A DNA stretch of 64,000 nucleotides from an uncultured Candidatus Saccharibacteria bacterium (GTDB lineage: Bacteria; Patescibacteriota; Saccharimonadia; Saccharimonadales; JAGQNJ01): positions 116,295-180,294 of the forward strand of contig OZ246406.1 in NCBI GenBank assembly GCA_965231045.1. The letters run 5' to 3'. This document shows, piece after piece, positions 34,077-62,945 of this stretch. Both the position numbers and the translations under genes were made by a program. Within the stretch, counting starts at the first letter, position 1, and every line of letters begins with the position of its first letter. The notes under the pieces were generated by a model. The model did no database searches and was not told the origin of the DNA. It saw only the letters and a list, made by a program, of their open reading frames with translations.

Positions 34077-34168
34077 TGGCGGAGAGAGAGGGATTCGAAC
34101 CCTCGATGCAAGTTACCTCACATACACGCTTTCCAAGCGTGCTCCTTCAACCACTCGGACACCTCTCC
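34077..34168 (-). tRNA. tRNA-Ser (anticodon GGA), CCA encoded
   Basis: The reverse complement reads GGAGAGG-TG-TCCGAGTGGTTGAAGGA-G-CACGC-TTGGAAA-GCGTG, then a long variable arm, GAGGGTTCGAATCCCTC, TCTCTCC, G and CCA. Confidence 0.93.
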
Positions 34169-38149: not shown

Positions 38150-38177
38150 TTGACTGATTTAGCCCTTATGCTAAACT
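38150..38177 (+). promoter_or_regulatory. Sigma70-type promoter for the giant-protein operon: TTGACT, 16-nt spacer, TGcTAAACT
   Basis: TTGACT at 38150-38155 and TAAACT at 38172-38177 with an upstream TG. A GAGGGAA Shine-Dalgarno-like sequence lies before the ATG at 38214. Confidence 0.45.
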
Positions 38178-38213
38178 GTTAATAACACGAAGTGAGGGAA
38201 CTAAACACAAAAT

Positions 38214-41200
38214 ATGAGTGTTGTACGTGTCATTGCCAAAAAAACTAGAACACACGTCAAAAAAATACGAAAAAAGACGCGACCTCTATTAGTCTCTCTT
38301 AATAAATCTCTCAAGAAAAATCTAAAAATACTGGCAAAACAGGTAAAAAAAATCACTATTGTTGGCGCCCTAACTTTGCACAGATTGGCCAAGTTTACAC
38401 ATCACCACGTAGCTACAAGGCCACATCAACACCTATCTAATAAATACAAATGGTACCGCGATTGGCATGAATGGCCGCACTCAAAGCGCGTACATGCTAT
38501 TGCACTAAGCATGTATATTCTTTTCATCGCGTCTTTGATCATATCGAGCTATAGGCTGACATTTGCTTCTGATTTGAACAGTACTTGGGATTTTTCAACA
38601 CCATCAAACTACACTTACGACAATGGTATTGAGCTTAACGGTAGCCTATCAAGGCTAAAAGCTCAAAACTACAGTAGTGATGCTAATACGTCGGCGCTAT
38701 ATCATCTTGATGAATCAAACGGCACGGCAGCTAGTGATTCATCTTCAAACAACAATACGGCAACTACTTCTGGATCACCAACTTTTGGTACGGGCAATCT
38801 AAACAATGCCTTAAGTTTTAACGGTACTACACAGAATGCGAGTGCGCCAGACTCCACTAGCCTATCGTTAAGCCAACAAAACTCGCTTGAAGCCTGGACC
38901 AAGTTTAACAGTAGTTTTAGTGCTGGGTCACATGACCAAAAGCAAGGAATTCTAGACAAAGGTGCCTACAAACTTTACTACGACCAAGAGACCGGAAAAG
39001 TTACCTATGAGCTAGCCAACAGTACGGCAACTGCATGGTCACAACAAGCTGGTAACGATATAAACGGGAGTTGGGATCTAAATGGTAAATTTGCGGTAAA
39101 TGCTCAACAGTATGTAAACGGTAAACTCTACGTTGGTTTAGGTAATGCTGTTGGTGATGCTGAAGTGTGGAGTTGGGACGGCACTAGCTGGTCACAAGTC
39201 GGCGGTGACGGGAAAAACAGTAGCTGGGCAGATCAAACTTATGAAAACGTCGATACATTAAATTTCAATGGGAACACTTTGTATGCTGGGCTTGGCTCAA
39301 GTACAGGTGATGCCGAAGTATGGAGTTGTGATACATCAACAAGCTGTGCAACCTGGACGAAAATCGGTGGAGACGGAATTAACTCGGGATGGGCTGTTAA
39401 CACCTATGAAGACGTGACAAGTATGACGGTAATGAGCGGCACTCTATATGTTGGACTGGGGACGACAGCCAATGATGCTGAAGTTTGGAGATGGAATGGA
39501 TCGGCCTGGACGAAAATCGGTGGGGATAGCATCAATAGCGGCTGGACGACTAATTATGAATCTGTGTATAGCCTGACAAATGATGGAACCAATGTTTACG
39601 CTGGGCTTGGCTTGACTGCCGGTGATGCTGAAGTTTGGAAATGGAACGGATCTGCCTGGTCTAAAATCGGTGGTGATGCTGTCAACTCTAGCTGGGCAGA
39701 TGTTACTTATGAAGAAGTGATAAGCATGCGTTACTTCGGAGGTAATCTATACGCTGGAATTGGATTGACTGCTGGCGACGCTGAAGTTTGGAGTTGGAAT
39801 GGGACGACATGGACTAAAATTGGGGGTGATACTCTTAACTCATCTTGGGATAGCGTTTCATATGAAGGCGTTTATAGCTTAGCCGATGATGGCACTAACC
39901 TCTATGCCGGGCTTGGCTCAACGGCTGGGGATAATGAAGTCTGGAAATGGAACGGATCGGCGTGGTCTAAAATCGGTGGTGATGCTGTAAATAGTGGATT
40001 CACGAACACACACACGATTGTTCAGTCGCTAGTGTATGCCAACAGTACTCTGTACGCTGGGCTTCAGGCTACAGCCAATAACTCTGAAGTCTGGTCATTT
40101 AACGGTACTTCCTGGACCCGTATAGGTGGTGGCGGAATTAATAAAAGCTGGGGCTATTTCAACCTGCAAAACGTTGAGAGTATGACCAGGTCCGGCGACT
40201 ACCTTTATGCGGGCACCGGTTATACCGTAGCCGGGAATGCTCTGATTTGGAGATTTGATGGTACTAGCTGGCAGCTAGTGGGCGGTCAAGGCGTTAATAG
40301 TAGCTGGTCGGCCACCACATACGAAGATGTTATGAGTATGACTAGTTTTGGCGGCAATCTGTACGTTGGCTTAGGTACAACCGCTAATGACGCTGAAGTT
40401 TGGAAATATAATGGGAGTACTTGGACGCAGATTGGGGGTGATAGTCTTAACAGTGGCTGGGGTGCAGGTTATGAAGAGGTCTACTCTATGGCTGTCTATG
40501 GTGGAAATCTTTATGCTGGATTGGGAAACTCGGCCAATGATGCTGAAGTCTGGAAATGGAACGGCACAACTTGGACAAAAATTGGGGGCGATAGCCTTAA
40601 CAGTGGCTGGACAACTAATTTTGAAAGAGTAAGTAGCTTGGCGGTATATGGAGGAGATTTGTATGCAGGTCTTGGTGCTTCAACTACCGACGCTGAAGTC
40701 TGGAAATGGAACGGTTCGGTTTGGAGCAAGATTGGCGGTGACGGTGTTAGCTCTAGCTGGAATGTCAATTATGAACAAGTTGAGACTTTGTCGGTATATA
40801 ATGGCAAGCTTTATGCGGGTCTTGGAAATAGCACTGCAGATGCAGAAGTTTGGGAGTATAACGGTACGGCATGGTCGCAAATTGGGGGTGACGGTCTTAA
40901 CAGTGGCTGGGCAGATGGTCAGTACGAGCAAGTAAAATCAATAGCCGTCTATAATGGCAAGCTTTATGTTGGTCTTGGAAACACGGCTGGAGATGGTGAG
41001 GTTTGGGTTTATGAAAATGGTGTTTGGGCCAAGAGTGCTGGTGGTGGCACCAATTCAAGTTGGGTAGCTAATACTATAGAAACTGTACAGACTTTGTGCG
41101 TATTCCGCGGGAAACTTTACGCCGGCCTTGGAAATACTGCCAACTCAGATGCCCAAGTTTGGTCTCTTGGCAATAATGGTTTTCTGCAATCTGCTTCTAC

Positions 41201-44200
41201 TTCACAGGACACTGGTTGGCATCATATTGCTGCGACGTACGACGGTACGACTATGAAAATATATATAGATGGGGCTCTCAATAGTTCGACAAATACTTCC
41301 CTCTCCATGCCAGATACAACCCAACCGTTATTACTTGGTTCGACTTATGGTGGTGGTAGTCCAGAATCAGGCTGGGCCCAGGGATACTTTACGGGAAGTC
41401 TTGATGAGATTCGAATAAGTAATACTGCAAGAAATAGCTTTACTTCAAAGCCGTATGTATCAACAGCACAAAGCATTACCTTAAATACTAACTCTTTAAC
41501 ACAAGGAGTTAAGTCACTTGATAGTTTCTCAGCAAGCGAAAGCCCAAATGGAGGGACCATAACGTATCGTTTGAGCGACGATGGCGGTAGTACTTGGAAA
41601 TATTGGAACGGATCCGCATGGGCGACGTCATCAAGTACTAATGAATCAAATGCCGCATCGGTTATTAACACCAACATACCAACCTTCCCAGTTACATTTT
41701 ATGGCTTACGTTGGCAGGCAATATTTACGGGTAGTGGTTCGCAGCAAGTTACTCTTAATTCGGTAACCGTACTGGCTACATCTGACAATATTGAGCCAAG
41801 TACGAATGCTAGCAGTATACTGGCATACAAAACTAACGGCGGCACAGCCCTTAACTCCAATGATTGGACGAATGGTGGCTCTCCGTACTTCACATGGACG
41901 GCAGGTAGCGATGCGGAATCCGGCATTTATGGCTATTGTCTTTATCTTGGCCAAGATAATACAGCTGACCCAATAACGACCAAGGGCCTACTCGGTACTA
42001 GCCCTACATATACCGGTAGTCATTGCCAATTCTTGGTTACTTCGGCTAGTGTTGACCTGGCGACATCAGGATACCTTGGCACGGCCATGACTACTTCAAA
42101 TACGCCGTACTATTTGCGAATAAAAGCCATCGATAAAGCTGGAAATGTCTATAGCACGAGTGCTGCACAGTTCCAGTTTAGATTTGATAATACGCCACCA
42201 ACAAATCCGGGATACATTACTGCCCCATCAGGATTTATTAACACTAAAAATGCCACGTTATCATGGCCGACAGTTGGCGGTCAGGCTCCTGCAGATGGTG
42301 CATCAGGGGTTGCCGGCCTTCAGTATCGCGTTAATAACTCACTTTGGTATGGCGATAGTCATACCGGCGCTGGTGACATCAATGATCTGCTTACAAATGA
42401 TGGTAGTTATAACACGACCGATCCGCCAGACTTCGGTAACTTAACAGAGGGTATCAATACAATATACTTTAGAACTTGGGATCAGGCAGGAAACGTTACT
42501 ACTAGCTACATTACTGCTGCCTTAAAGGTAAACACTTCTGGCGCACCTTCTGAGCCGCAAAATGTACTTGTAAATCCATCAACCAATACAGCCAACTCAT
42601 TTGCCTTTAGCTGGGATGCTCCGGTTACTTATGTTGGTGACGTCAGTAACATAACCTACTGCTACACAATTAATGTTCTGCCATCGGAAAGCAACTGTAC
42701 TTATACTAGCCCTGGCATACGTAGCTTAGGGGCGGGCCCCTATGCTACTCAACCCGGATCAAATACTTTCTACGTAGTTGCCAGGGATGAATCCAGCAAC
42801 ATCAACTATTCTAGTTATGCGACTACGACATTTACGGCAAATACGCCATCTCCTGGTATTCCGACAAACACAGATATTGTTGACGTGTCTATAAAAGCTA
42901 CCAGCAATTGGCGATTGGCGCTAACTTGGGAACCACCGGCAAATCCTGGGGCCGGAATTAGCAATTATAAAGTCTATCGATCAACGAACTTAAACGGTAG
43001 CTTTAGCTTTGTAGGAAGCAGTAGTAGCACAACTTATATCGATGCTGGTTTGAGTCCGCAGACCTATTATTACCGCGTACGCGCTTGTGATAGTACAAAC
43101 AATTGTAGTGCCGACGGTACGACTGTATCGATGCTGCCTACAGGTAAATTTACGTCACCTGCCAATCTGACTAGTGAGCCTCAAGTTTCTGGCGTTACTA
43201 CTAAGCGATCTAAGATCACATGGTCAACGGATCGCACTAGCGATTCAAAAGTCGCCATTGGTACATCAAGCGGCAAATATAGTGCTTCAGAAGTTGGAAA
43301 TTCCGATCAAGTTACGAGCCATAGTATCGATTTAGATAACCTAGCTGCGGGGACTACCTACTACTTTGTCGTCAAATGGACCGATGAAGACGGTAATACC
43401 GGAACCAGCCAAGAGTATAGCTTTACGACATCCCCTGCACCGGTCGTGAAAGAAATAAATGCGGTCAAGATCGGCTTAACAACGACGACTCTGCAGTTCA
43501 CTTCCAAGGGGGCCAATAAGATTAATGTTTACTATGGCCTAAGTGAATCTTATGGCGGCCTGGTTACTATCAACACCTCACAAGCCGAATCAACGTATAA
43601 TGTAGAATTAAGTGGCCTAAGCGACGGCTCAAAATACTTCTATAAGCTAAGTGCCTTTGATAGCGAAGGTACTGAATATCAGGGCAATGTATTGTCATTT
43701 ACTACCCCTGCCCGACCACACATATCCGACCTAAGGTTCCAGCCCGTCAGTGGTGAGCCAACTAGTACGCAAAAAGTCACCTGGTCCACTAACGTACCAG
43801 CTTCATCGACAATTACTTATGGAAAAGTTAACACTAACGGAATTGACGTTCAGGACTCTACCCTTGCAACCAGCCATGAAATAACGATAAGAGGCCTTGA
43901 GGATGACAGCGAATACTTCTTGCTTGCCCAAAGTCGTGACAAGGATGGTAACTTGGCTGTGTCCGACAAACAGGTCTTTAAGACAGCTCTTGATACTCGA
44001 CCACCGAAAGTTTCGGACATTAACGTTGAGCCATCGATTCGGGGGCTTGGAGCTGAAGCGCGTGGACAAGTTATTGTGTCGTGGAAGACCGACGAGCCAT
44101 CATCAAGCCAAGTTGCCTACGGCGAAGGTTCAAATGCCAAAGTCTTTAATAGCAAAACGACCGAAGATACTAGCTTGACCACTGAACATATAGTTGTTGT

Positions 44201-44363
44201 TTCGGACTTGCCTACTTCAAAGGTCTACAGCCTGGCTCCTGTGTCACGCGATAAGGCCGGAAACACAGGGAACGGAGAACCACAGTCGGCAATTATTGGT
44301 CGAGGTAGTGAAAGCGTGCTGACGATAATTCTTAATACATTACAGAAAGTGTTTGGGTTGTAG
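38214..44363 (+). CDS. Giant (2049 aa) N-terminally anchored surface protein: split LamG-like domain, 14 blade repeats, FN3-like modules
   Basis: Lys-rich N-terminus and a TM segment near aa 94-113 (HAIALSMYILFIASLIISSY). LamG-like halves lie at aa ~150-270 and ~989-1075 (WHHIAATYDGTTMKIYIDG...GSLDEIRISN). Fourteen repeats occupy aa 275-988. FN3-like modules follow, for example SNYKVYRS...YYYRVRACD. Four tandem modules of about 92 aa occupy aa ~1650-2025. Confidence 0.9.
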   Translation: MSVVRVIAKKTRTHVKKIRKKTRPLLVSLNKSLKKNLKILAKQVKKITIVGALTLHRLAKFTHHHVATRPHQHLSNKYKWYRDWHEWPHSKRVHAIALSMYILFIASLIISSYRLTFASDLNSTWDFSTPSNYTYDNGIELNGSLSRLKAQNYSSDANTSALYHLDESNGTAASDSSSNNNTATTSGSPTFGTGNLNNALSFNGTTQNASAPDSTSLSLSQQNSLEAWTKFNSSFSAGSHDQKQGILDKGAYKLYYDQETGKVTYELANSTATAWSQQAGNDINGSWDLNGKFAVNAQQYVNGKLYVGLGNAVGDAEVWSWDGTSWSQVGGDGKNSSWADQTYENVDTLNFNGNTLYAGLGSSTGDAEVWSCDTSTSCATWTKIGGDGINSGWAVNTYEDVTSMTVMSGTLYVGLGTTANDAEVWRWNGSAWTKIGGDSINSGWTTNYESVYSLTNDGTNVYAGLGLTAGDAEVWKWNGSAWSKIGGDAVNSSWADVTYEEVISMRYFGGNLYAGIGLTAGDAEVWSWNGTTWTKIGGDTLNSSWDSVSYEGVYSLADDGTNLYAGLGSTAGDNEVWKWNGSAWSKIGGDAVNSGFTNTHTIVQSLVYANSTLYAGLQATANNSEVWSFNGTSWTRIGGGGINKSWGYFNLQNVESMTRSGDYLYAGTGYTVAGNALIWRFDGTSWQLVGGQGVNSSWSATTYEDVMSMTSFGGNLYVGLGTTANDAEVWKYNGSTWTQIGGDSLNSGWGAGYEEVYSMAVYGGNLYAGLGNSANDAEVWKWNGTTWTKIGGDSLNSGWTTNFERVSSLAVYGGDLYAGLGASTTDAEVWKWNGSVWSKIGGDGVSSSWNVNYEQVETLSVYNGKLYAGLGNSTADAEVWEYNGTAWSQIGGDGLNSGWADGQYEQVKSIAVYNGKLYVGLGNTAGDGEVWVYENGVWAKSAGGGTNSSWVANTIETVQTLCVFRGKLYAGLGNTANSDAQVWSLGNNGFLQSASTSQDTGWHHIAATYDGTTMKIYIDGALNSSTNTSLSMPDTTQPLLLGSTYGGGSPESGWAQGYFTGSLDEIRISNTARNSFTSKPYVSTAQSITLNTNSLTQGVKSLDSFSASESPNGGTITYRLSDDGGSTWKYWNGSAWATSSSTNESNAASVINTNIPTFPVTFYGLRWQAIFTGSGSQQVTLNSVTVLATSDNIEPSTNASSILAYKTNGGTALNSNDWTNGGSPYFTWTAGSDAESGIYGYCLYLGQDNTADPITTKGLLGTSPTYTGSHCQFLVTSASVDLATSGYLGTAMTTSNTPYYLRIKAIDKAGNVYSTSAAQFQFRFDNTPPTNPGYITAPSGFINTKNATLSWPTVGGQAPADGASGVAGLQYRVNNSLWYGDSHTGAGDINDLLTNDGSYNTTDPPDFGNLTEGINTIYFRTWDQAGNVTTSYITAALKVNTSGAPSEPQNVLVNPSTNTANSFAFSWDAPVTYVGDVSNITYCYTINVLPSESNCTYTSPGIRSLGAGPYATQPGSNTFYVVARDESSNINYSSYATTTFTANTPSPGIPTNTDIVDVSIKATSNWRLALTWEPPANPGAGISNYKVYRSTNLNGSFSFVGSSSSTTYIDAGLSPQTYYYRVRACDSTNNCSADGTTVSMLPTGKFTSPANLTSEPQVSGVTTKRSKITWSTDRTSDSKVAIGTSSGKYSASEVGNSDQVTSHSIDLDNLAAGTTYYFVVKWTDEDGNTGTSQEYSFTTSPAPVVKEINAVKIGLTTTTLQFTSKGANKINVYYGLSESYGGLVTINTSQAESTYNVELSGLSDGSKYFYKLSAFDSEGTEYQGNVLSFTTPARPHISDLRFQPVSGEPTSTQKVTWSTNVPASSTITYGKVNTNGIDVQDSTLATSHEITIRGLEDDSEYFLLAQSRDKDGNLAVSDKQVFKTALDTRPPKVSDINVEPSIRGLGAEARGQVIVSWKTDEPSSSQVAYGEGSNAKVFNSKTTEDTSLTTEHIVVVSDLPTSKVYSLAPVSRDKAGNTGNGEPQSAIIGRGSESVLTIILNTLQKVFGL
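39036..41177 (+). repeat. 14 tandem coding repeats, period ~150-165 nt (50-55 aa)
   Basis: The recurring pattern is LYAGLGxxxGDAEVWxWNGxxWxxIGGDxxNSxWxxxxYExVxS. The GDAEVW-equivalent positions fall at aa 314, 365, 420, 470, 521, 572, 622, 674, 725, 775, 825, 875, 926 and 978. Confidence 0.92.
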
Positions 44364-44365
44364 CA

Positions 44366-45142
44366 ATGAATAGTAATCTGAACACAGTTATAAGTATCTC
44401 TAAGGTAAGCCAGTCGTTTAAAGTTGGTGATGAAAATATACAAGTGCTGAGCGATGTTAATTTCAAGATTTTAGAAAATACTTTCAATATTCTTTATGGA
44501 CCATCTGGGTCTGGTAAATCAACCTTACTTAATATTCTCACGGGTTTGCAGAAGCCAAGTCAAGGTAGTGTAACTTTTAATAATCGTGATATCTACAATC
44601 TAATACCTAATCAACTAGCGCATTTCCGAGCGAACGATATCGGCATTATGTATCAGCAGAACTATTGGGTAAAAAGTCTTAACGTCGTTGAAAATGTTTC
44701 AGTCCCTCTATACTTCTTAGGTTATTCCCGAGCCAAAGCGCAAAAAATTGCTCAGGATACACTAAACAGATTTAGCATGGGTGAATATTCTAAGAAAACA
44801 CCATTCTTGTTATCTGGTGGTGAGCAACAACGTATTGCCTTAGCCCGTGCCGTCGTTAATGATCCGCTAGTCATTGTTGCGGATGAGCCAACTGGAAATT
44901 TGGATAGTAAAAATGGTGATATGATTATGAACTTACTTCAACAATATCAAACAGAACTAAAACGTACGATTATCTTGGTCACCCACAACCTTGAGTATTT
45001 GCCGCTTGCTGATCAGTTGATTCATATTCAAGATGGTCGTGTTGAAGAAATGCTAGATGGTGATATTCAAGAAACCACCAACCAGTTGCTTGGCGATATG
45101 AAAGCCCGTATTGATCGATTGTCGAAAGCGAGGCAAAAATGA
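44366..45142 (+). CDS. ABC transporter ATP-binding protein (FtsE/LolD/MacB-like)
   Basis: Walker A GPSGSGKST, signature LSGGEQQR, Walker B VIVADEPTGNLD. Its ATG lies 2 nt after the giant gene's stop. Confidence 0.92.
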   Translation: MNSNLNTVISISKVSQSFKVGDENIQVLSDVNFKILENTFNILYGPSGSGKSTLLNILTGLQKPSQGSVTFNNRDIYNLIPNQLAHFRANDIGIMYQQNYWVKSLNVVENVSVPLYFLGYSRAKAQKIAQDTLNRFSMGEYSKKTPFLLSGGEQQRIALARAVVNDPLVIVADEPTGNLDSKNGDMIMNLLQQYQTELKRTIILVTHNLEYLPLADQLIHIQDGRVEEMLDGDIQETTNQLLGDMKARIDRLSKARQK

Positions 45143-46377
45143 GCCTACGACAAAATATTAATGACTATCTAAAGAACCGTAAGAATTACCGAGCAATCCA
45201 CTTGAAGGTTCTGCTTTACATGGCCTGGAAGAATCTAATCAGCAAGAAGCTTAGAACAGCTCTAACTATCTCAGGTGTTGTCATTGGTATTACAGCTATA
45301 TTCTTTTTGCTGTCCTTTGGGCTTGGTATTCAACAGCTTGTAACTAAGCAGGTTGTTGGTGATAGATCTCTAAAGTCGATTGACATAAACACACCTAACT
45401 CCAAGGTCCTCAAACTTAATGAAGAGTTTGTTAACAAGGTTAAATCATACCCGCATGTCGATAAGGTTGGCACGGAGTATTCTTTCCCCGGCGCAATTTC
45501 ATATAAAGGTGGTGAAATTGATAGTGTTGTCTACGGCATTAATGATGATTACCAAAAACTTCTTACTTTAAATCTGACGTCTGGTCGGTTATTAAAAAGT
45601 GATGACAACAAGGCAATCCTTATTAACAAATCTGCACTAGATGCAATCGGGCTAAAGGATAAGCCGGTTGACCAAAAGCTAACAATAACAATCCCTCTGA
45701 AGAACTCCAGTCAGAAAGCCCAGCAAATTAAAGAAGAATTTACGATCGTTGGTGTAGTTGACTCGGGTGCTGGAAGCGAAATATTTATGCCGGACCATGT
45801 TTTTAGCCTGGCAGGAGTTACAACCTATCAGCAAGTAAAAGTTGTAGCCGACAAGAACGACAACGTGGCGAGTCTAAGAAAACAAATTGAGAGTAATGGT
45901 TTTCAGACTACTTCACTTGGCGACACGCTTGTTGAGATGAATCGAATATTTAAGTTCTTCAATGTAATACTAGTTAGTTTTGGTAGCATTGGTATGGTTG
46001 TATCTATTCTGGGTATGTTTAACACTCTAACCATATCCTTGCTGGAAAGAACAAAAGAAATTGGACTGATGATAACTCTAGGCGGCCGGCCGTCAGACAT
46101 GCGCAAACTGTTTATACTGGAAGCCGTAGTTATCTCGATTGTAGGTGCAATCATAGGTATTATAGGTGCAGTAATGATCGGTAGGCTTGTAAACGTTGTT
46201 ATGAATGGCTTCGCGGCACATCGTGGCGTAACAGAACGTTTTAATTTGTTCTCAACGCCTATGTGGGCAATCGGGGTTATTGTCCTTATGACTACTGTCG
46301 TCGGTCTGGTTGTAGTTTACTTCCCTGCTCGACGAGCTGAAAAGATCAGCCCAATAGATGCCCTCAGACGAGAATAA
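45139..46377 (+). CDS. ABC permease, FtsX/MacB type
   Basis: TM1 (LTISGVVIGITAIFFLLSF), an extracytoplasmic domain of about 230 aa, and the FtsX module ERTKEIGLMITLGG plus 3 TM segments. ATGA overlap with the ATPase gene at 45139-45142. Confidence 0.9.
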   Translation: MSLRQNINDYLKNRKNYRAIHLKVLLYMAWKNLISKKLRTALTISGVVIGITAIFFLLSFGLGIQQLVTKQVVGDRSLKSIDINTPNSKVLKLNEEFVNKVKSYPHVDKVGTEYSFPGAISYKGGEIDSVVYGINDDYQKLLTLNLTSGRLLKSDDNKAILINKSALDAIGLKDKPVDQKLTITIPLKNSSQKAQQIKEEFTIVGVVDSGAGSEIFMPDHVFSLAGVTTYQQVKVVADKNDNVASLRKQIESNGFQTTSLGDTLVEMNRIFKFFNVILVSFGSIGMVVSILGMFNTLTISLLERTKEIGLMITLGGRPSDMRKLFILEAVVISIVGAIIGIIGAVMIGRLVNVVMNGFAAHRGVTERFNLFSTPMWAIGVIVLMTTVVGLVVVYFPARRAEKISPIDALRRE

Positions 46378-47355
46378 TCATAATATTTTCTTGGCAATCA
46401 AATATCTAAACATGAAAAAACCCGGGATTAATGGAAGCCAGAAAGCTAGAAGTCTATATACCAAGACAATACTAAGAGCGTTTGTCGAAGCAATACCAGT
46501 AGCGTATAAACCACTATAAAATCCAAGCTCGGCACCACCAATTCCACCTGGAGTTGGTGATACAGTCCCGCCGGTCAATCCAAAAGTAAAGGCTATGAAA
46601 GCTTGAGCCAAGGTTATTTGTTCGCCCAAACCCTTAGTACATAAATAGAATGCTACTAAGTAAAATGTTGTAGTACCTAAGGCACTAAGAAGCCCAAATA
46701 ATACAAGTTGGGGTCGTTTTTTATACGCTTGCAACAAATGCAATAACTTTGCTAGTGACTCCTCGGCCTTCTGTCGGATCTGCTTAACTAGACTGGCTAG
46801 CAAAATGAGCAGTACTACCCCTACTAACAAAAAAATGATCCAAGCCGAAGATAAATGTATGTTTACGAGCTTAATTGGCTCATGCGTAAAAACAATTAGC
46901 AAAAATGCTGCCAATATATATGACAAAAAACTTAGTAAATTATTTAGGGCAACAATGGCTGTGGCCTGAGTTTTACTGTGCATGACACCAGAAATGTACT
47001 TAATGTTTGTGGCTACCCCGCCCAGACCAGCTGGTAGTAATCGACTGGTAAATGCTCCAGCCAGTTCAACTTGAACCATCTGTAAGTATTCGATTTTACG
47101 ATCAGCTAACGACCAATAAACCCCGGCTGCTGTGAAGTAAGTTACAGCTATGGCAAACAGCGACAGACTAATTAGCGGCCAGTTACCTTCCGCTAGGGCT
47201 ATGGCTCCCTGCTTAAGGCTAGAATAGTTTAAGTACAGGACGACTATCGTAAGAACAAGCGACGCGGCAAATATAAGCTTTCGCCAGGACCGCTCTTTTA
47301 TGGCAAAACTAAATGTCGCGTGCAAGAGTTGTTTAATAGGATTTTTGTGCGACAT
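46378..47355 (-). CDS. UPF0104/LPG-synthase-TM (flippase-like) membrane protein
   Basis: 325 aa with about 8 TM segments. The motif RLLPAGLGGVATNIKY is typical of this family. Confidence 0.68.
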   Translation of the reverse strand: MSHKNPIKQLLHATFSFAIKERSWRKLIFAASLVLTIVVLYLNYSSLKQGAIALAEGNWPLISLSLFAIAVTYFTAAGVYWSLADRKIEYLQMVQVELAGAFTSRLLPAGLGGVATNIKYISGVMHSKTQATAIVALNNLLSFLSYILAAFLLIVFTHEPIKLVNIHLSSAWIIFLLVGVVLLILLASLVKQIRQKAEESLAKLLHLLQAYKKRPQLVLFGLLSALGTTTFYLVAFYLCTKGLGEQITLAQAFIAFTFGLTGGTVSPTPGGIGGAELGFYSGLYATGIASTNALSIVLVYRLLAFWLPLIPGFFMFRYLIAKKIL

Positions 47356-47440: not shown

Positions 47441-48163
47441 ATGAAAGAATGGGATTTCAGTAACCTTAAGGCAGTGTTCATTAATTGCACGCTTTCTCCG
47501 TCCCCTAAAATTAGTCATACCGAAAAACTTGCTCAAATAAGTATAGATATAATGAATAAACATGGTGTAAAAACGGAAATGATTCGCCTGGTTGATCATG
47601 ATGTTGCCCCAGGTGTTTATCCTGATATGACCAAGCATGGTTTTAAAACTGATGAATGGCCAAAGATTCAAAAGAAAGTTATGGATGCCGATATATTGGT
47701 GCTGTGTGGGCCTATTTGGCTTGGTGACAACAGCAGTGAAATGAAGAAAGCCATTGAGCGACTTTATGCTAATTCGGGTGATCTTAATAAGGCTGGTCAG
47801 TATGCTTATTACGGTAAAGTCGGTGGTTGTCTTATCACTGGTAACGAAGACGGCATAAAACACTGCGCTATGAATATCCTTTATAGTTTGCAACATCTTG
47901 GGTATACAATTCCACCACAAGCGGATGCGGGTTGGATTGGTGAGGCTGGGCCTGGAGCAAGCTACGGTGACAAATTAGAAGATGGAACGATCGTTGGTGT
48001 AAGCAATGACTTTACGAACCGCAATACTACTTTTATGACGTGGAACTTGATGCACCAAGCAAAACTGCTCAAAGAAAATGGCGGCGTACCAGCTTATGGT
48101 AACCAGCGATCAGAGTGGGATGCGGGCGCTCGTTTTGATTTCGAAAATCCAGAATACCGTTAG
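47441..48163 (+). CDS. Flavodoxin-like NAD(P)H-dependent FMN reductase family protein
   Basis: KAVFINCTLSPSPKISHTEKL...ADILVLCGPIWLGDNSS... is the typical layout of this family. Confidence 0.78.
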   Translation: MKEWDFSNLKAVFINCTLSPSPKISHTEKLAQISIDIMNKHGVKTEMIRLVDHDVAPGVYPDMTKHGFKTDEWPKIQKKVMDADILVLCGPIWLGDNSSEMKKAIERLYANSGDLNKAGQYAYYGKVGGCLITGNEDGIKHCAMNILYSLQHLGYTIPPQADAGWIGEAGPGASYGDKLEDGTIVGVSNDFTNRNTTFMTWNLMHQAKLLKENGGVPAYGNQRSEWDAGARFDFENPEYR

Positions 48164-49182
48164 GTGTTTAGGGGCAATCTTAGAATAAACGTTGACCCGT
48201 GATTCACTTTACTTTTGACTTCAATGCTACCATCATGAAGCTCAATAATGTTTTTGGCGATCGAAAGTCCCAGGCCATGCCCCTCATTATGTTGCTTGCT
48301 GCGAGCTGAATCAGCTCTATAGAAACGCTCAAAAATATGACTTAATTCGGATGGTTTGATCCCGATCCCCTGGTCTATGACGTCAATCCTGACATCACTT
48401 TTAGTAAGCTGGAGCTTAACTTCGATTGATGAATTTTTAGGGCTGTACTTGATTGCATTATCAACAAGAATGGTAATTACCTCAATGATACTCGCTCTAT
48501 CAACGAGAACCATGGCATCGTTTGGTAGGGTTGTAATAATCTTTAAGTTTTTCGTTTTAGCTAAGGCTTTCGCTCGATCGGTTGATTCTAGAATCATTTT
48601 CTTCAAAGAAGCTGGTTTTTTCTCGATTGAGTCATTTTCTAGACTGGCCAGTTTTAGAAGGCCTTCTGATAGAGCAGTTAAGCGTGCCAATTCTTCTAGA
48701 TTACTCTTAAGCTGCTGTTTGGCTTGCTTTAGAGTAAGGTTAGGGTTCATGAGTGTAACCTCAATTTCAGTTTGCATAGCGGCAATTGGTGTCCGGAGTT
48801 CATGGCTAGCATCTGCAGTAAATCTTTCAAGCGCTTCATGAGACTCTTCGATCGGCCGTAAGGTTCGTCGCGCCAGGTAATAGCTCAAAAAGTAACCACC
48901 AACCAAGATAAATACATTAGTTAGTATTAACCTGCCTAAAATGTGTGCTCGAGCTTCGTTGAGTTCAAGTAAGCGATCATTAGTAAATTGATTAAGTGTA
49001 TCAAGTGGTATTGCCCCACCTGGCAATCTATCAATAAATACTCCTTGACGACGAAAACCACGATTTAGTTCTTGTACGGAAACACTATACAAATTAATAC
49101 TGAAGAATATGCTTATAGCCATCATTATTGATAAGTAAACGGCGGTAAGCTTGGTAGATGTTTTATGAAAAATTAGATTCAC
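48160..49182 (-). CDS. Sensor histidine kinase
   Basis: 2 TM segments, H-box FTADASHELRTPI, N-box LVDNAIKYS, and G-boxes DQGIGI and GHGLGLS. 4-nt overlap with the response regulator gene. Confidence 0.9.
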   Translation of the reverse strand: MNLIFHKTSTKLTAVYLSIMMAISIFFSINLYSVSVQELNRGFRRQGVFIDRLPGGAIPLDTLNQFTNDRLLELNEARAHILGRLILTNVFILVGGYFLSYYLARRTLRPIEESHEALERFTADASHELRTPIAAMQTEIEVTLMNPNLTLKQAKQQLKSNLEELARLTALSEGLLKLASLENDSIEKKPASLKKMILESTDRAKALAKTKNLKIITTLPNDAMVLVDRASIIEVITILVDNAIKYSPKNSSIEVKLQLTKSDVRIDVIDQGIGIKPSELSHIFERFYRADSARSKQHNEGHGLGLSIAKNIIELHDGSIEVKSKVNHGSTFILRLPLNT

Positions 49183-49856
49183 TTTTTGACCCCAAAGTAA
49201 TATCCAAAGCCCCGACGGGTGTGAATTAACTGAGTTTTAAATGGTTTATCAATTTTATTTCGCAAGTAGCCTATGTAGACTTCGATGGTGTTTGGTAATA
49301 TCTCTGAATCATAGTCCCAAACATGTTGCATTAGCGTATCTTTGGTTAGTATTTGTTCGGCATGTGTCATTAAGTATTCAAGGAGCGCAAACTCCTTGGC
49401 CGTTAGTTCGATTGACTTACCGGCTCTAGTAACGCTAAGACTCTTTGAGTCTAGGACTAGATTATCGTATTCAAGAATGTCGGTCTTACTTTGTTGTGGG
49501 CGACGCAGTAATGCCCTAACGCGAGCGACTAGTTCGACAAAAGCGAAAGGCTTAACTAAATAGTCATCGGCACCACTATTCAGCCCATGAGCGCGATCAA
49601 GCACTTTATCTTTAGCAGTTAAAAGCAGGATTGGCATATGTAATTTTTGGTCCCGAACGTTCTTAAGAATACCTATGCCATCAACTGATCCCGGTAGCAT
49701 GCGGTCAAGAATTATTAGATCATACGGCTCATTCAGGGCCATACTCAAACCATCATCGCCATCATATGCCACGTCAACGGCGTATGATTGCTGCTCCAAG
49801 CCTCGCTTGATTGCGTTGGCAATTTTATGTTCATCCTCAACTACGAGTATTCGCAT
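49179..49856 (-). CDS. OmpR/PhoB-family response regulator
   Basis: The receiver is MRILVVEDEHKIA...DLIILDRMLPG. The winged-helix output is LTAKEFALLEYL...VYIGYLRNKID...IHTRRGFGY. Confidence 0.93.
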   Translation of the reverse strand: MRILVVEDEHKIANAIKRGLEQQSYAVDVAYDGDDGLSMALNEPYDLIILDRMLPGSVDGIGILKNVRDQKLHMPILLLTAKDKVLDRAHGLNSGADDYLVKPFAFVELVARVRALLRRPQQSKTDILEYDNLVLDSKSLSVTRAGKSIELTAKEFALLEYLMTHAEQILTKDTLMQHVWDYDSEILPNTIEVYIGYLRNKIDKPFKTQLIHTRRGFGYYFGVKK

Positions 49857-50618: not shown

Positions 50619-51221
50619 TTATTGCAGTAAGTGACGAACTGCTTCTGTAATCGCTGCACCTAGTAGCAGAGCTAGCGTTATCCCGGCAGTTCCAATCACT
50701 ACCCCTACGATAAGCATTGCAAAGTCTTCCAAGATTAAACTAAGCGATATAACCACGACACCTAGAGCGGATAATGTATCTAGGCCTGAGAATGGTGGGG
50801 CCAAAAATGCGCCAAGTGTAAATACTAAGATAAGAATTGATACTATTCTCAAGGCGTAATGATGCCCCATCATTTTTTCAAGTCTTGGTTTCGAATAGCG
50901 CTCAAACCACCTAACGCGCCTCATCAGGAATGGCAGCATGCGTTTTAAAACAGGCTTAGGTACGCTTAATTTACGCCAGCGTTTTGGCAGCCAAACTGTT
51001 CGTCGTCCTGCCAGAAGCTCTAAACAGAGCAACATACATATTATTTCAAACAAATGTGTTACACCACCAGTTGGAATGGGCAGAGCCGGTAGTGACATAA
51101 GTAATAAAAAGACAATAGCAAAACTTTTTTCAGCGAATACTTCGGTCAACCCGACTATTGTTTTGGGTTGATCGCTTTTGAGCCAACCCTCAAGCTGATC
51201 ACTAAACCGTTTTGCTTTCAC
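50619..51221 (-). CDS. ExoD-family membrane protein
   Basis: SFAIVFLLLMSLPALPIPTGGVTHLFEIICMLLCLELLAGRRTVWLPKRW matches the ExoD family pattern. Confidence 0.78.
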   Translation of the reverse strand: MKAKRFSDQLEGWLKSDQPKTIVGLTEVFAEKSFAIVFLLLMSLPALPIPTGGVTHLFEIICMLLCLELLAGRRTVWLPKRWRKLSVPKPVLKRMLPFLMRRVRWFERYSKPRLEKMMGHHYALRIVSILILVFTLGAFLAPPFSGLDTLSALGVVVISLSLILEDFAMLIVGVVIGTAGITLALLLGAAITEAVRHLLQ

Positions 51222-54086: not shown

Positions 54087-55223
54087 TTATTTGGTTGAGT
54101 GCTGTGATTTCAAAGCTTCGGACAATTCCCGCTTGGCAAATGCCGCACAGGCAGCCTTAGCGTCAGCATACATCATTTGTTTTGGCGGGGTTTTTTGTGT
54201 CCAGGCACTTGGGCCTCTAAGAGCGCCAACAATTCCCATTTCTTTGGCGACTTGTAGATAGCGAATAGCATCAATCACTACGCCAGCACTGTTTTCAGAA
54301 TCTTGCACTGATAACTTGACGTCAATTGTTACTGGAGCATCCCCAAAACCACGTAAACGTAGATTAAAATAAGCTACTTTGTTATCTTCAAGGTATGGCA
54401 GATACGTACTAGGCCCAGCAAATAAACTGTTCTTGGCGACTGGGATACCTCGAATTTCGTTTTGAGCACGAATCACATTCTCTTTTGATTTTTTCTTAGA
54501 TGCTAAACGACTCTGGACCATCATGTTGTTAAAGTCAGTATTCCCACCTATATTTAGTTGCTGATGAAAATCTACAATCATGCCGCGATCAAAAGCGAGC
54601 TCTTGAAGAACTTGGCTTAACACGCTGGCTCCAAGTTGACTACGCATATCATCGCCAACAATTGGTAGGCCCGCATCAACAAACTTCTTCTCCCATTTTG
54701 GATCGCTAGCAATAAATACAGGGATACAGTTTAAGAACGCTACTTCGGCATCAATTGCGGCCTGAGCATAAAACTCCGTTGCTTTTTGTGACCCAACGGG
54801 TAAATAATTAACCAATATATCGGCACCACTATCTTTTAAGGCTTTAGCAACGTCCACAGGTTTTTCCTTCGAAATTCTAAAAGCCTCATCTTCTGGTTGC
54901 TCAAGCATATAGTCGGATACGCCATCATGGACTTCGCCCATTAGAACTTTCGGCCCATCCGGTACTTTTGGCATAAATATCCGGGCACAGTTCGGCTTGG
55001 CAAATATAGCTCTACCAATTGGCTGCCCCACTTTACGTTTATCGACATCAAAAGCTGCCACAACTTCTATGTCGGTTGGAGAGTAGCCACCGATATCGGC
55101 AAACATAATACCGGGTATATCATTAGATTTGTTACCAGAGTAGTACGCAAAACCCTGATACAAAGCTGAAAAACAGTTACCAATACCAACGACCGCAATT
55201 TTAATGTTTTTTTGTTTAGTCAT
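54087..55223 (-). CDS. ino1: myo-Inositol-1-phosphate synthase
   Basis: IKIAVVGIGNCFSALYQGFAYY..., LPVGSQKATEFYAQAAIDAEVAFLNCIP and NIGGNTDF are hallmarks of bacterial/archaeal MIPS. Confidence 0.9.
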   Translation of the reverse strand: MTKQKNIKIAVVGIGNCFSALYQGFAYYSGNKSNDIPGIMFADIGGYSPTDIEVVAAFDVDKRKVGQPIGRAIFAKPNCARIFMPKVPDGPKVLMGEVHDGVSDYMLEQPEDEAFRISKEKPVDVAKALKDSGADILVNYLPVGSQKATEFYAQAAIDAEVAFLNCIPVFIASDPKWEKKFVDAGLPIVGDDMRSQLGASVLSQVLQELAFDRGMIVDFHQQLNIGGNTDFNNMMVQSRLASKKKSKENVIRAQNEIRGIPVAKNSLFAGPSTYLPYLEDNKVAYFNLRLRGFGDAPVTIDVKLSVQDSENSAGVVIDAIRYLQVAKEMGIVGALRGPSAWTQKTPPKQMMYADAKAACAAFAKRELSEALKSQHSTK

Positions 55224-62171: not shown

Positions 62172-62945
62172 ATGCGTATCACCGCAATTTTGGCGGGGGT
62201 GTTTTTAAGTGCTGCCGTATTTTTGGCAGCCAGTTCGCCGGTGCACGCCGAAGCACCACAACAATTAGCTCTCGGCAATTCAATAAATATTAGTAATGAA
62301 CAGATTGTTCTGACTGCGGTCAATACACAGCTGCAAGTCGCACAAAAAACGTCTGATCAAAAGTCGGATCCAGTTTTGCATACGGTCGTCGAAAATGAGA
62401 CGCTGACGAGTATTGCTAGCCAATATCAAACAACTTGGCAAAGATTGTTTGCCAAGAATACAAATCTTAGCGACCCAAACGTTATTAGTGTCGGGGATGT
62501 TCTTGTGATACCAAAAAATGATGAGCAGTTGACCGAACGAGTTGTGCAAGAGCCACAACCGATAGTTGAAGAGCCGTCAGTACCAAAGCCAGCGTCTGCA
62601 CCTAAGCAATCTAAGCCAGTCGTCACTGCTAGTGCCCCGCGCGGGGGTTCCGGGGGTAATACATACTCTCCTGGATACTGCACCTGGTACGTTAAGAATC
62701 GTCGACCAGACTTGCCTAATAATTTGGGTAATGCAAATACTTGGGTAGCTAGAGCTGCTGCACAAGGCATACCTACGGGTAGTTCACCAAGAGCAGGTGC
62801 TATTGGTCAACAAGGAATGCACGTTGTCTACGTTGAGTCTGTAAATGGTGACGGTACAGTTACGATTAGCGAGATGAATCACGCTGGTTGGAATGTAGTT
62901 GATACGCGTACGGTGCCAGCCAGCTATTTCAACTACATATACTAG
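62172..62945 (+). CDS. Secreted LysM plus CHAP peptidoglycan hydrolase
   Basis: Signal peptide, LysM domain (HTVVENETLTSIASQY...VGDVLVIP), and CHAP domain (GYCTWYV...GMHVVYVESV...). Confidence 0.88.
   Translation: MRITAILAGVFLSAAVFLAASSPVHAEAPQQLALGNSINISNEQIVLTAVNTQLQVAQKTSDQKSDPVLHTVVENETLTSIASQYQTTWQRLFAKNTNLSDPNVISVGDVLVIPKNDEQLTERVVQEPQPIVEEPSVPKPASAPKQSKPVVTASAPRGGSGGNTYSPGYCTWYVKNRRPDLPNNLGNANTWVARAAAQGIPTGSSPRAGAIGQQGMHVVYVESVNGDGTVTISEMNHAGWNVVDTRTVPASYFNYIY

Follow-up and report, generated by a model that had tools for sequence, protein, structure and literature searches.

ABC (ATP-binding cassette) systems of type VII power work beyond the membrane, for instance when lipoproteins are extracted, hydrolases activated or toxins expelled, and one of them, LolCDE, engages the acyl chains of lipoproteins. 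Giant adhesins of type I secretion systems (LapA/RTX) are repetitive proteins with a conserved C-terminal element, encoded beside a dedicated ABC system. The ultrasmall bacteria of the Candidate Phyla Radiation (CPR) depend on cell contact, but little is known of their surface machinery beyond type IV pili, and we know of no giant surface protein described as the partner of a type VII ABC system. These systems act on extracytoplasmic substrates by mechanotransmission (reviewed in PMC5985334), and YtrF belongs to a type VII ABC system of a monoderm for which a link has been made to the thickness of the cell wall and to envelope stress, not to classical transport (PMC8060467, PMC12772383). Very large FhaB/DUF2341 proteins have been noted in Patescibacteria with no mention of an ABC link (PMC11809585). 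Here, a three-gene unit is described in a 64,000-nucleotide (nt) stretch of an uncultured Candidatus Saccharibacteria bacterium (the window; GenBank assembly GCA_965231045.1, contig OZ246406.1, positions 116,295–180,294 of the forward strand), in which the gene for a very large surface protein, called the giant below, is followed by genes for an ABC ATPase and a MacB-type permease. What appears to be new is the giant surface protein as a partner class for an ABC machine of otherwise known type. An initial annotation, made from the letters alone, knew of no described system of this composition, and in full-text searches no pairing of a giant with a MacB-type ABC pair was found for Saccharibacteria or CPR.

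The junctions within the unit, read directly from the sequence, are of the translational-coupling type. The giant and ATPase genes are separated by 2 nt (TAG-CA-ATG), the ATPase and permease genes overlap in ATGA (AAAATGAGC), and the stop of the permease gene abuts that of a convergent gene (Table 1), while the gene upstream of the giant is divergent and formyltransferase-like. The initial annotation had given these reading frames, the gap, the overlap and the abutting gene exactly, and the three-gene unit it proposed is real and is kept across relatives. The tight junctions suggest that the giant, the ATPase and the permease are produced together. The promoter-like sequence that had been proposed ahead of the giant gene is present and is the only one on the plus strand within the 158-nt intergenic region, but such sites are no commoner than in shuffled sequence (21 sigma-70-like sites in the region, 21.0 expected), so the promoter is plausible and has no statistical support. 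No terminator-like site was seen between the three genes or right after the unit, and a uniform GC content of 0.40–0.46 gave no hint of recent transfer.

Homologues of the giant fall into more than 120 full-length clusters with 54–100% identity and lengths of 1940–2090 amino acids (aa), and the named ones are all from metagenome-assembled genomes of Saccharibacteria or Saccharimonadales. In a scan of one genome per GTDB species at least 272 relatives were confirmed, which is a lower bound because the scan requires exact short patterns, and 80 loci were fetched (L numbers below). Of the 73 loci in which sufficient DNA lies downstream, 72 have an ATPase orthologue directly after the giant gene, at a median distance of 2 nt and within −11 to +16 nt in 68 of them, and the permease gene then follows with a median overlap of 4 nt. 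Four further loci end 90–301 nt past the stop codon of the giant. The one real exception, L054, has the permease gene directly after the giant and the ATPase gene ∼1 kb upstream on the other strand, and counts against the handling machine proposed below. In the reverse direction, three permease orthologues picked regardless of the giant were all preceded by an ATPase gene and a gene for a ∼2030-aa giant. The expectation of the initial annotation that the giant gene would lie 5′ of the ABC pair in relatives was thus borne out from both sides. Synteny is inherited jointly by close relatives, and the 80 loci include some that are closely related, so that the adjacency might be due to chance or merely inherited. 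This is highly improbable and effectively refuted, as no other neighbour in the window is conserved beside the unit and all other neighbours differ between loci, the triplet persists down to 45% identity of the giant, and the linkage recurs with rearranged gene order in other CPR classes. Contigs L025, L059, L061, L062 and L078 are labelled as Bacillota, Gammaproteobacteria, Bdellovibrionales or Pseudomonadales and look like mis-assigned CPR bins.

More distant relatives were sought by searching the C-terminal 885 aa of the giant against 1.84 billion cluster representatives, which yielded at least 1443 clusters with E≤1e-30. Among the best 150 matches, in proteins of ∼1050–4400 aa, nearly all carry the whole module at the extreme C-terminus. 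The common layout is a variable head followed by a conserved array of ∼880 aa and an amphipathic tail, and what all ABC-linked giants share is this array and tail alone, neither the N-terminus nor the head. The heads are of LamG/propeller, DUF2341 or multiple LamG type, and their exchange suggests ligand diversity between paralogues. A MacB-type system lies beside 8 of the 9 diverse members that were looked up in their contigs (Table 1), which were placed in Saccharimonadia, Dojkabacteria and CPR3 by source names. The NBD (nucleotide-binding domain) and permease are fused in the Dojkabacteria locus, and the three giants of L092 flank a single system made up of a duplicated-NBD ATPase of 570 aa and a permease of 638 aa. 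A paralogous triplet encodes a 1445-aa protein with a DUF2341 head, the same N-terminal motif and the same tail, the C-terminal half of which is 49% identical to aa 1165–2049 of the giant; its own ATPase and permease share 47% and 44% identity with those of the unit. Adjacency that outlasts changes of order, fusion and duplication is a classical signature of functional coupling, and such coupling of the giant and the ABC pair is well supported by gene order. Comparison of these loci shows the unit to be, on gene content and homology, one subfamily of a Patescibacteria-wide association of giants with type VII ABC systems.

The permeases linked to giants share 30–39% identity with the one described here at 70–198 bits (127–198 bits except for the contig-truncated copy in L087), compared with 22–29% and 62–84 bits for a second MacB-type permease in the window. 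By these scores they form a subfamily of their own, distinct from that other pair. The second pair (ATPase of 298 aa, permease of 408 aa with MacB_PCD and FtsX domains) is encoded 2 kb upstream of the unit; its permease is 24% identical to the giant-linked one and no giant gene lies beside it. In L012 its orthologues directly follow the module, and in L029 and L060 they lie ∼15 kb upstream. Enlarged permeases of 640–710 aa, with a ∼300-aa insertion in the extracytoplasmic domain (ECD), are present in L054, L059, L090 and L092; a weak PAS match was obtained in the L054 insertion.

An indirect link would also account for conserved neighbourhood, if the ABC pair were an envelope-defence or efflux pump of the kind of BceAB, YknYZ or YtrEF, removing antimicrobial peptides, lipids or toxins, and the giant a co-regulated surface layer, protective or structural, with which it makes no contact. 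In favour of this, 'antimicrobial peptide transport system permease' is among the names given to orthologues by the Joint Genome Institute, genes for two-component systems, CHASE4 kinases and PspC/LiaF turn up repeatedly close to the modules, and for an adhesin the giant shows unusually high conservation. Co-regulation alone, however, rarely keeps junctions of 0–5 nt over more than 70 species, the adjacency survives order changes, NBD-permease fusion and duplication of the whole triplet, and the giant-linked permeases stand apart from the other MacB-type pair of the same genome. We consider this explanation improbable. Genes for two-component systems, CHASE4 kinases or PspC/LiaF lie within ∼6 kb of the modules in about a dozen loci (L023, L033, L040, L075, L087, L088 and others), and in the window a histidine kinase and a response regulator are encoded 1.8 kb downstream of the unit; the recurrence of such genes may mean regulatory or envelope-stress coupling.

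Table 1. Features of the unit, of the giant and of related loci. Coordinates are those of the window unless a locus number is given.
Feature	Residues or size	Coordinates	Strand	Remarks
Promoter-like site		38150–38177	+	TTGACT-16 nt-TAAACT with upstream TG; 36 nt before the giant start codon
Giant gene	2049 aa	38214–44363	+	ATG start; 6150 nt including stop
Giant, N-terminal region	aa 1–57	38214–38384	+	Lys/Arg-rich, strongly amphipathic, cytoplasmic side
Giant, juxtamembrane motif	aa 58–94	38385–38495	+	His/Trp-rich, HxHxAxRPHxxLxxKxxWYxxWHxW..H
Giant, hydrophobic segment	aa 92–115	38487–38558	+	sole strongly hydrophobic segment (signal-peptide h-region or transmembrane anchor), Kyte-Doolittle mean 2.17
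Giant, AxA-type motif	aa 116–118 (T-F-A)	38559–38567	+	signal peptidase I motif, predicted cleavage after A118
Giant, first part of head	aa 119–285	38568–39068	+	beta-rich N-terminal part of LamG/ConA-type domain (AlphaFold model)
Giant, blades	aa 286–990	39069–41183	+	14 four-stranded blades of ∼50 aa, two tandem 7-blade beta-propellers
Giant, second part of LamG	aa 991–1085	41184–41468	+	C-terminal two-thirds of LamG jelly roll
Giant, stalk	aa 1086–2020	41469–44273	+	about nine FN3/Ig-like beta-sandwich domains, three conserved Cys pairs
Giant, C-terminal tail	aa 2021–2049	44274–44360	+	...AIIGR(G/A)S(E/D)SVLTIILNTLQKVFG-L; amphipathic helix closing the giant
ABC ATPase gene	258 aa	44366–45142	+	
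Type VII ABC permease gene	412 aa	45139–46377	+	
Convergent reading frame		46378–47355	−	LPG_synthase_TM flippase-like; 0 nt between stops
Second MacB-type pair	298 and 408 aa	34266–36388	+	
Histidine kinase and response regulator		48160–49856	−	
ExoD gene		50619–51221		
Myo-inositol-1-phosphate synthase		54087–55223		
Trehalose-6-phosphate synthase/phosphatase		56992–59184		fused
LysM + CHAP protein		62172–62945		peptidoglycan hydrolase
Reading frame, probably no gene	125 aa	33835–34212	+	overlaps tRNA-Ser(GGA)
tRNA-Ser(GGA)		34077–34168	−	
Paralogous triplet		L032 3112–9483		directly upstream of the orthologous one; also L066, L067, L076 and L040 22014–26264
L086 (Dojkabacteria)	4042 aa	18135–20360 (NBD-permease)		fused NBD-permease, 741 aa, MacB-like, 5 nt downstream
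L087	3194 aa			system 2.6 kb downstream, behind CHASE4-PAS histidine kinase and response regulator
L088 (CPR3)	3040 aa			ATPase and permease 17 nt downstream
L089	1448 aa			contig ends, uninformative
L090	2538 aa			ABC pair immediately upstream
L091	2557 aa			ABC pair immediately upstream
L092	3105, 2898 and 2745+ aa	1–20697		giants flank one ABC system
L093	1757 and 1542 aa	1–10629		one permease, then the giants
L094	2816 aa			ATPase and permease 27 nt downstream
Enlarged permease, L054		15813–17954		
Enlarged permease, L059		16656–18761		
Enlarged permease, L090		2917–4872		
Enlarged permease, L092		3980–5896		

The permease has four hydrophobic segments (aa 38–69, 270–302, 321–359 and 370–398) with ∼200 aa between the first two, in a layout of one transmembrane helix (TM1), a MacB_PCD extracytoplasmic domain of ∼210 aa and FtsX-type TM2–4. 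The MacB_PCD match (PF12704) extends over aa 40–252 and profile positions 1–206 of 207 with 79.7 bits against a cut-off of 27, and the FtsX domain was found at aa 280–405 (63 bits). The nearest solved chains are YtrF, MacB, Spr0695 and LolF/E/C. Mean pairwise column identity is 0.72 in TM1 and 0.78–0.86 in aa 281–320 (TM2), and lowest in the extracytoplasmic domain (0.43). The ATPase is a MacB/LolD/FtsE-like NBD (ABC_tran, 104 bits) with a C-terminal extension of ∼30 aa, and its best NCBIfam models, LolD, FtsE and the MacB NBD, all score under their cut-offs. The motifs GPSGSGKST, LSGGEQQR, VIVADEPT and VTHN are intact, comprising Walker A and B with the catalytic Glu, the signature and the H-loop, and the catalytic motifs are kept in 71–74 of 74 orthologues, which suggests an active motor. 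Judged from its domains, the ABC pair is a type VII system of the MacB/Lol/YtrF kind, in agreement with the MacB/FtsX-type pair of the initial annotation.

That annotation had also raised the possibility that the pair is an orthologue of the divisome FtsEX found elsewhere. This was rejected on model scores, which were 28.1 bits against 250 for FtsX_actino, 27.2 against 225 for FtsX_Gpos and 26.5 against 255 for FtsX_Gneg, and on the type of extracytoplasmic domain, which matches MacB_PCD and not FtsX_ECD (PF18075); no FtsX chain was among the PDB matches, and the partner gene encodes a giant that has no hydrolase domain. Southlakia, a cultured Saccharibacterium, has a distinct FtsEX unit that is essential, in which genes for FtsE, an FtsX of 330 aa carrying FtsX_ECD and a CHAP protein stand in a row (PMC10633639). 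The Lol equivalogs were excluded in the same way (TIGR02212 lolCE, 65 against 362 bits; TIGR02211 LolD, 196 against 308 bits). The 10-TM architecture of the BceAB type, with the extracytoplasmic domain between TM7 and TM8, does not fit a permease with only four hydrophobic segments in 412 aa. A MacAB-type adaptor system was rejected as no HlyD or membrane fusion protein (MFP) domain was found in the giant, in the flanking genes of the window or beside the module in related loci; an unrelated RND-type MFP is encoded 2.5 kb from the module in L093. The type I secretion of a giant adhesin was likewise set aside, given the N-terminal hydrophobic signal or anchor, the type VII ABC system and the lack of RTX or MFP matches.

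The giant begins with a basic amphipathic region, which has the highest hydrophobic moments of the protein and an identity of 0.12, followed by a His/Trp-rich motif (identity 0.29) and the hydrophobic stretch (0.20 for aa 95–113). Identity climbs to 0.42–0.63 from the AxA site onward, and at this site Ala occupies position −1 in 64 of 69 orthologues, while V, A, I, T or L is found at position −3. Most members of the superfamily have a short basic N-terminus, a hydrophobic stretch, small residues and then a conserved mature start. Because of the near-constant Ala at −1, the low N-terminal identity and these superfamily N-termini, the N-terminus is read as a long cleavable Sec signal peptide, which fits at least as well as an anchor. 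An extended signal peptide of the KxYKxGKxW or YSIRK type was rejected, as the conserved residues misfit by eye and no NCBIfam model matched, and neither a lipobox nor a Cys near the predicted cleavage site was visible at the N-terminus. Cleavage is opposed by the length of the hydrophobic segment, ∼20 aa, and by a basic residue at −5 or −4 in about half of the orthologues, and on these grounds an uncleaved N-terminal anchor is possible, though the less probable outcome. The initial annotation had described the giant as N-terminally anchored, with a Lys-rich head and one TM segment; the Lys-rich N-terminus and the single hydrophobic segment are there, but the segment may belong to a signal peptide, and the conserved AxA motif at the end of the least conserved part of the protein speaks against the anchor.

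If the N-terminus were uncleaved, the giant could stand in for an adaptor of the MacA/YknX type, its cytoplasmic tail and one TM helix lying beside the permease. The His/Trp motif would then touch the ATPase or permease, and ATP hydrolysis would be transmitted to a membrane-proximal head. The order giant-NBD-permease matches the order adaptor-NBD-permease known from YknXYZ and other MacAB-like operons of Gram-positives, the N-terminal cytoplasmic region and TM helix of an adaptor stimulate the MacB ATPase (PMC5985334), and the hydrophobic segment is long and often followed by basic residues. The conserved juxtamembrane motif is confined to these giants, being present among the fetched loci only in the giants and in the paralogue with the DUF2341 head. 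However, it occurs in just 9 of 143 superfamily representatives though the ABC linkage persists, it and the hydrophobic segment are among the least conserved parts while the Ala at −1 is nearly invariant, and the part nearest the permease would be the head, which varies between ABC-linked members. The ABC genes also lie upstream of the giant in several clusters. An adaptor-like role for the giant is therefore distinctly unlikely. With up to nine His in ∼35 residues, the His/Trp motif would make an unusual n-region for a signal peptide; it is limited to the closest subfamilies, and candidate roles for it include metal binding, targeting and contact with the ATPase. Most of the superfamily representatives that do not have it carry a hydrophobic segment among their first ∼60 residues.

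Beyond the predicted cleavage site, the head of the giant combines a lectin-like domain with propellers. The blade motif GDAEVW.WNG..W..IGGD..NS.W was found in 12 copies by regular expression, with spacing that leaves room for two divergent ones, and the AlphaFold model of aa 119–1090 is all-beta, its 56 strands falling into 14 sets of four (predicted local distance difference test score, pLDDT, 85; predicted template modelling score, pTM, 0.82). Structure predictions for the giant used shallow multiple sequence alignments of 22–23 rows. The best Foldseek matches of the head are double 7-blade propellers (Elp2, PorZ, Aip1 and GH74) at ∼10% identity, a generic fold that says nothing about function. 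Pfam gave no match to the N-terminal head segment alone, and in the native giant Laminin_G_2 was matched only at aa 993–1070, with 24.2 bits against a cut-off of 22.9. When the blades (aa 301–985) were removed in silico, Laminin_G_3 was matched with 63.7 bits against a cut-off of 27.6 (E 2.8e-17), and the match spans the splice, running from aa 284–300 to aa 986 onward. The blades interrupt the LamG domain, which is split and has the double propeller inserted. LamG, 14 blades and FN3 modules had all been recognised in the initial annotation and all are present in Pfam matches or the model, but LamG is not the separate module it was taken for. The head is predicted to be lectin-like. Pfam matches of the giant were LamG, fn3 and Pur_ac_phosph_N, no catalytic family was matched in Pfam or NCBIfam, consistent with the earlier failure to see a catalytic motif, and no PDB entry was matched when the giant was searched by sequence. 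The giant contains 49 N-X-S/T sequons compared with ∼37 expected, and WNG[ST] recurs in the blades.

The stalk was modelled as beads on a string ending in a short helix (pLDDT 80, pTM 0.36), and its Foldseek matches are tandem FN3/Ig (immunoglobulin) arrays at ∼10% identity that give no functional clue. It has the highest identity in the giant (0.54–0.63), and its three conserved Cys pairs fit an extracytoplasmic location. From typical domain size, nine FN3/Ig domains could span ∼35 nm if extended. The tail helix (hydrophobic moment 0.41, hydrophobicity 0.46) keeps I2027 in 67, L2043 in 68, F2047 in 68 and G2048 in 66 of 69 orthologues, most of which stop one residue past this Gly. A sortase (LPXTG) or other known sorting signal was rejected, as the C-terminus (...IIGRGSESVLTIILNTLQKVFGL) has no LPXTG; it contains only ∼10 contiguous apolar residues and no hydrophobic segment above threshold, and no NCBIfam sorting-signal model matched it. 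A tail-like motif was found in 107 of 150 superfamily representatives and comes in two flavours, ...AIIGRxSDxVLxIIFNxLxxIFGF and ...TITPKATDNALxLVxxNLxxxFGFL... The motif [RK]-A-[ST]-[DE] (GRASD, PKATD) precedes the helix in both and could be a processing site or helix cap. The enlarged permeases mostly accompany the TITPK flavour, but covariation of tail flavour with permease length was not clean enough to use.

The best explanation, which we favour tentatively, is that the unit is a dedicated machine for handling a surface protein, acting on the stalk-tail module in a Lol-like manner. The giant would be exported through Sec by its long signal peptide, probably cut after Ala118, giving an extracellular rod of ∼1930 residues that has the lectin-like head and the conserved tail at opposite ends. 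The tail helix may lie with its hydrophobic face at the outer leaflet, where, by analogy with LolCDE, MacB and FtsEX, a permease dimer could capture this face from the outer-leaflet side at the conserved TM1/TM2 stalk helices. By the same analogy, binding and hydrolysis of ATP by an ATPase dimer would drive a mechanotransmission stroke by which the tail-stalk module is pushed out of the plane of the membrane, and the giant might thereby be mounted on the envelope or set free, its head directed away from the cell. The module is the suggested target because it is the sole element common to ABC-linked giants and the most conserved one, and TM1/TM2 of the permease are conserved likewise. One ABC machine could serve several giants that share the module, since several giants accompany one ABC system in L092 and L093.

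Several observations weigh against such handling of the tail. The tail helix was modelled at pLDDT ∼50, which is low confidence, and it is amphipathic, neither a lipid nor a true TM segment, so that the analogy with Lol is loose. A hidden Markov model search of 150 representatives found no fusion of a giant with a permease or ATPase. The tail of the paralogue is nearly identical to that of the orthologues though the ABC proteins are only 44–47% identical, and what the tail binds may therefore be a common partner, for instance the membrane or wall, rather than its cognate permease. The two-component and LiaF/PspC genes that recur nearby would also fit an envelope-stress role.

Alternatively, the cleaved giant might stay bound to the permease extracytoplasmic domain through its C-terminal module, as on a permanent FtsEX-like base, with ATP cycles changing its conformation to switch, extend or stiffen an adhesin-like rod rather than release it. 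The synteny is the same evidence for this arrangement, and the coupling junctions suggest co-production of the three proteins. FtsEX works in this way with PcsB, EnvC and RipC (PMC5985334), and C-terminal attachment would put the variable head distal, as in typical adhesins. On the other hand, two or three giants per ABC system in L092 and L093 suit a shared machine better than a 1:1 stator, the extracytoplasmic domain is the least conserved part of the permease while the tail and stalk are highly conserved, and the X-lobe with which FtsX binds its partners is not indicated, the domain being MacB_PCD and not FtsX_ECD. A permanent base of this kind is unlikely. Returning to the handling machine, its extension to the whole lineage is possible, and is put forward with reserve: across Patescibacteria, this ABC subfamily would recognise the stalk-tail module as a handle and use ATP to mount, move or release giants with interchangeable lectin-like heads at the surface of these ultrasmall and host-dependent cells. 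If so, the handle system would amount to a Lol equivalent of monoderms, or to a base for adhesins that runs on ATP.

The initial annotation had suggested that the ABC pair may activate, extend, release or remodel the giant and that this could be an ATP-controlled apparatus for contact with a host. The extracellular part has an identity of 0.52–0.63 in the giant, compared with 0.50 for the ATPase and 0.46 for the permease, and a giant better conserved than its ABC partners is unlike a rapidly adapting adhesin that determines host specificity. No PF16656, PF13385 or PF10102 protein is present in the annotation table of Southlakia, a cultured oral epibiont, and the family is absent from it; the family is thus not a universal requirement for episymbiosis, and transposon sequencing data for Southlakia are uninformative on it. 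The partnership is kept in hundreds of genomes and several CPR classes, with interchangeable heads on a constant stalk-tail module, and the tail motif together with the permease subfamily provides a sequence signature for mining. The unit is a concrete and testable candidate system and a potential new client class for mechanotransmitting ABC transporters, and leads to the hypothesis that ATP hydrolysis controls the display of large proteins in a monoderm whose giants have no sortase-type signals.

Surface-polysaccharide genes (Wzy_C, Bac_transf, GT4, GtrA and dTDP-rhamnose enzymes) often flank the module, as in L082–L085 and L093, and an ExoD gene lies near the unit in the window. Further downstream are genes for myo-inositol-1-phosphate synthase, a fused trehalose-6-phosphate synthase/phosphatase and a peptidoglycan hydrolase. 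For a CPR genome, which is reduced, the inositol and trehalose genes represent a notable biosynthetic capacity, and they have an Actinobacteria-like flavour. A short reading frame that overlaps a tRNA gene on the other strand is probably no gene (Table 1).

Among the described systems, LolCDE resembles the unit in its 4-TM permease with a MacB-type periplasmic domain and separate NBD, and in acting on a Sec-exported protein, the hydrophobic element of which is pulled from the outer leaflet while nothing crosses the membrane (PMC5985334). LolF, LolE and LolC are among the nearest solved chains of the permease, and LolD is the best NCBIfam model for the ATPase. However, the scores of the unit are far under the Lol equivalog cut-offs, its one permease gene implies a homodimer, the organism is a monoderm that has no outer membrane, and the partner is a product of the same operon. 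The element proposed as handle is an amphipathic helix at the C-terminus and not an N-terminal triacyl group. FtsEX with PcsB, EnvC, RipC or CwlO is similar in that cytoplasmic ATP hydrolysis acts on an extracytoplasmic partner protein, and in Southlakia a CHAP-domain partner is encoded right after ftsEX. The permease described here, at 412 aa with a MacB_PCD (Porter + Sabre) domain, differs from FtsX of ∼300 aa with FtsX_ECD, and its partner is a non-enzymatic multidomain protein of 2049 aa with no coiled coil or hydrolase domain.

YknXYZ, Spr0693-0695 and MacAB-TolC share with the unit a MacB-type permease and an NBD, and an upstream gene for a single-pass protein with a large extracytoplasmic part, and the fused NBD-permease of Dojkabacteria has the architecture of E. 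coli MacB. The giant is, however, a linear array of propellers and FN3 domains and not a hexameric, channel-forming adaptor, it has no HlyD/MFP domain, and the unit has no known small-molecule substrate. Among solved structures, YtrF of B. subtilis YtrBCDEF comes closest to the permease (9o9x, E 3.4e-29), with a match limited to the C-terminal TM region (aa 226–412). The ytr operon has no giant surface protein. Giant adhesins of type I secretion systems differ in their HlyB-type (type IV fold) exporter, MFP and outer membrane protein and have no N-terminal signal peptides, whereas the unit has a type VII ABC system and an N-terminal Sec-type signal, and no RTX repeats were detected in it. In Aat (AatPABCD), as in the unit, a MacB-type ABC system is dedicated to a co-encoded surface protein, dispersin (PMC5985334). 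The substrate there is of 10 kDa and passes through a TolC-like duct in a diderm, whereas the giant, at ∼220 kDa, far exceeds the size limit discussed for passage through MacB, which makes transport through the machine implausible.

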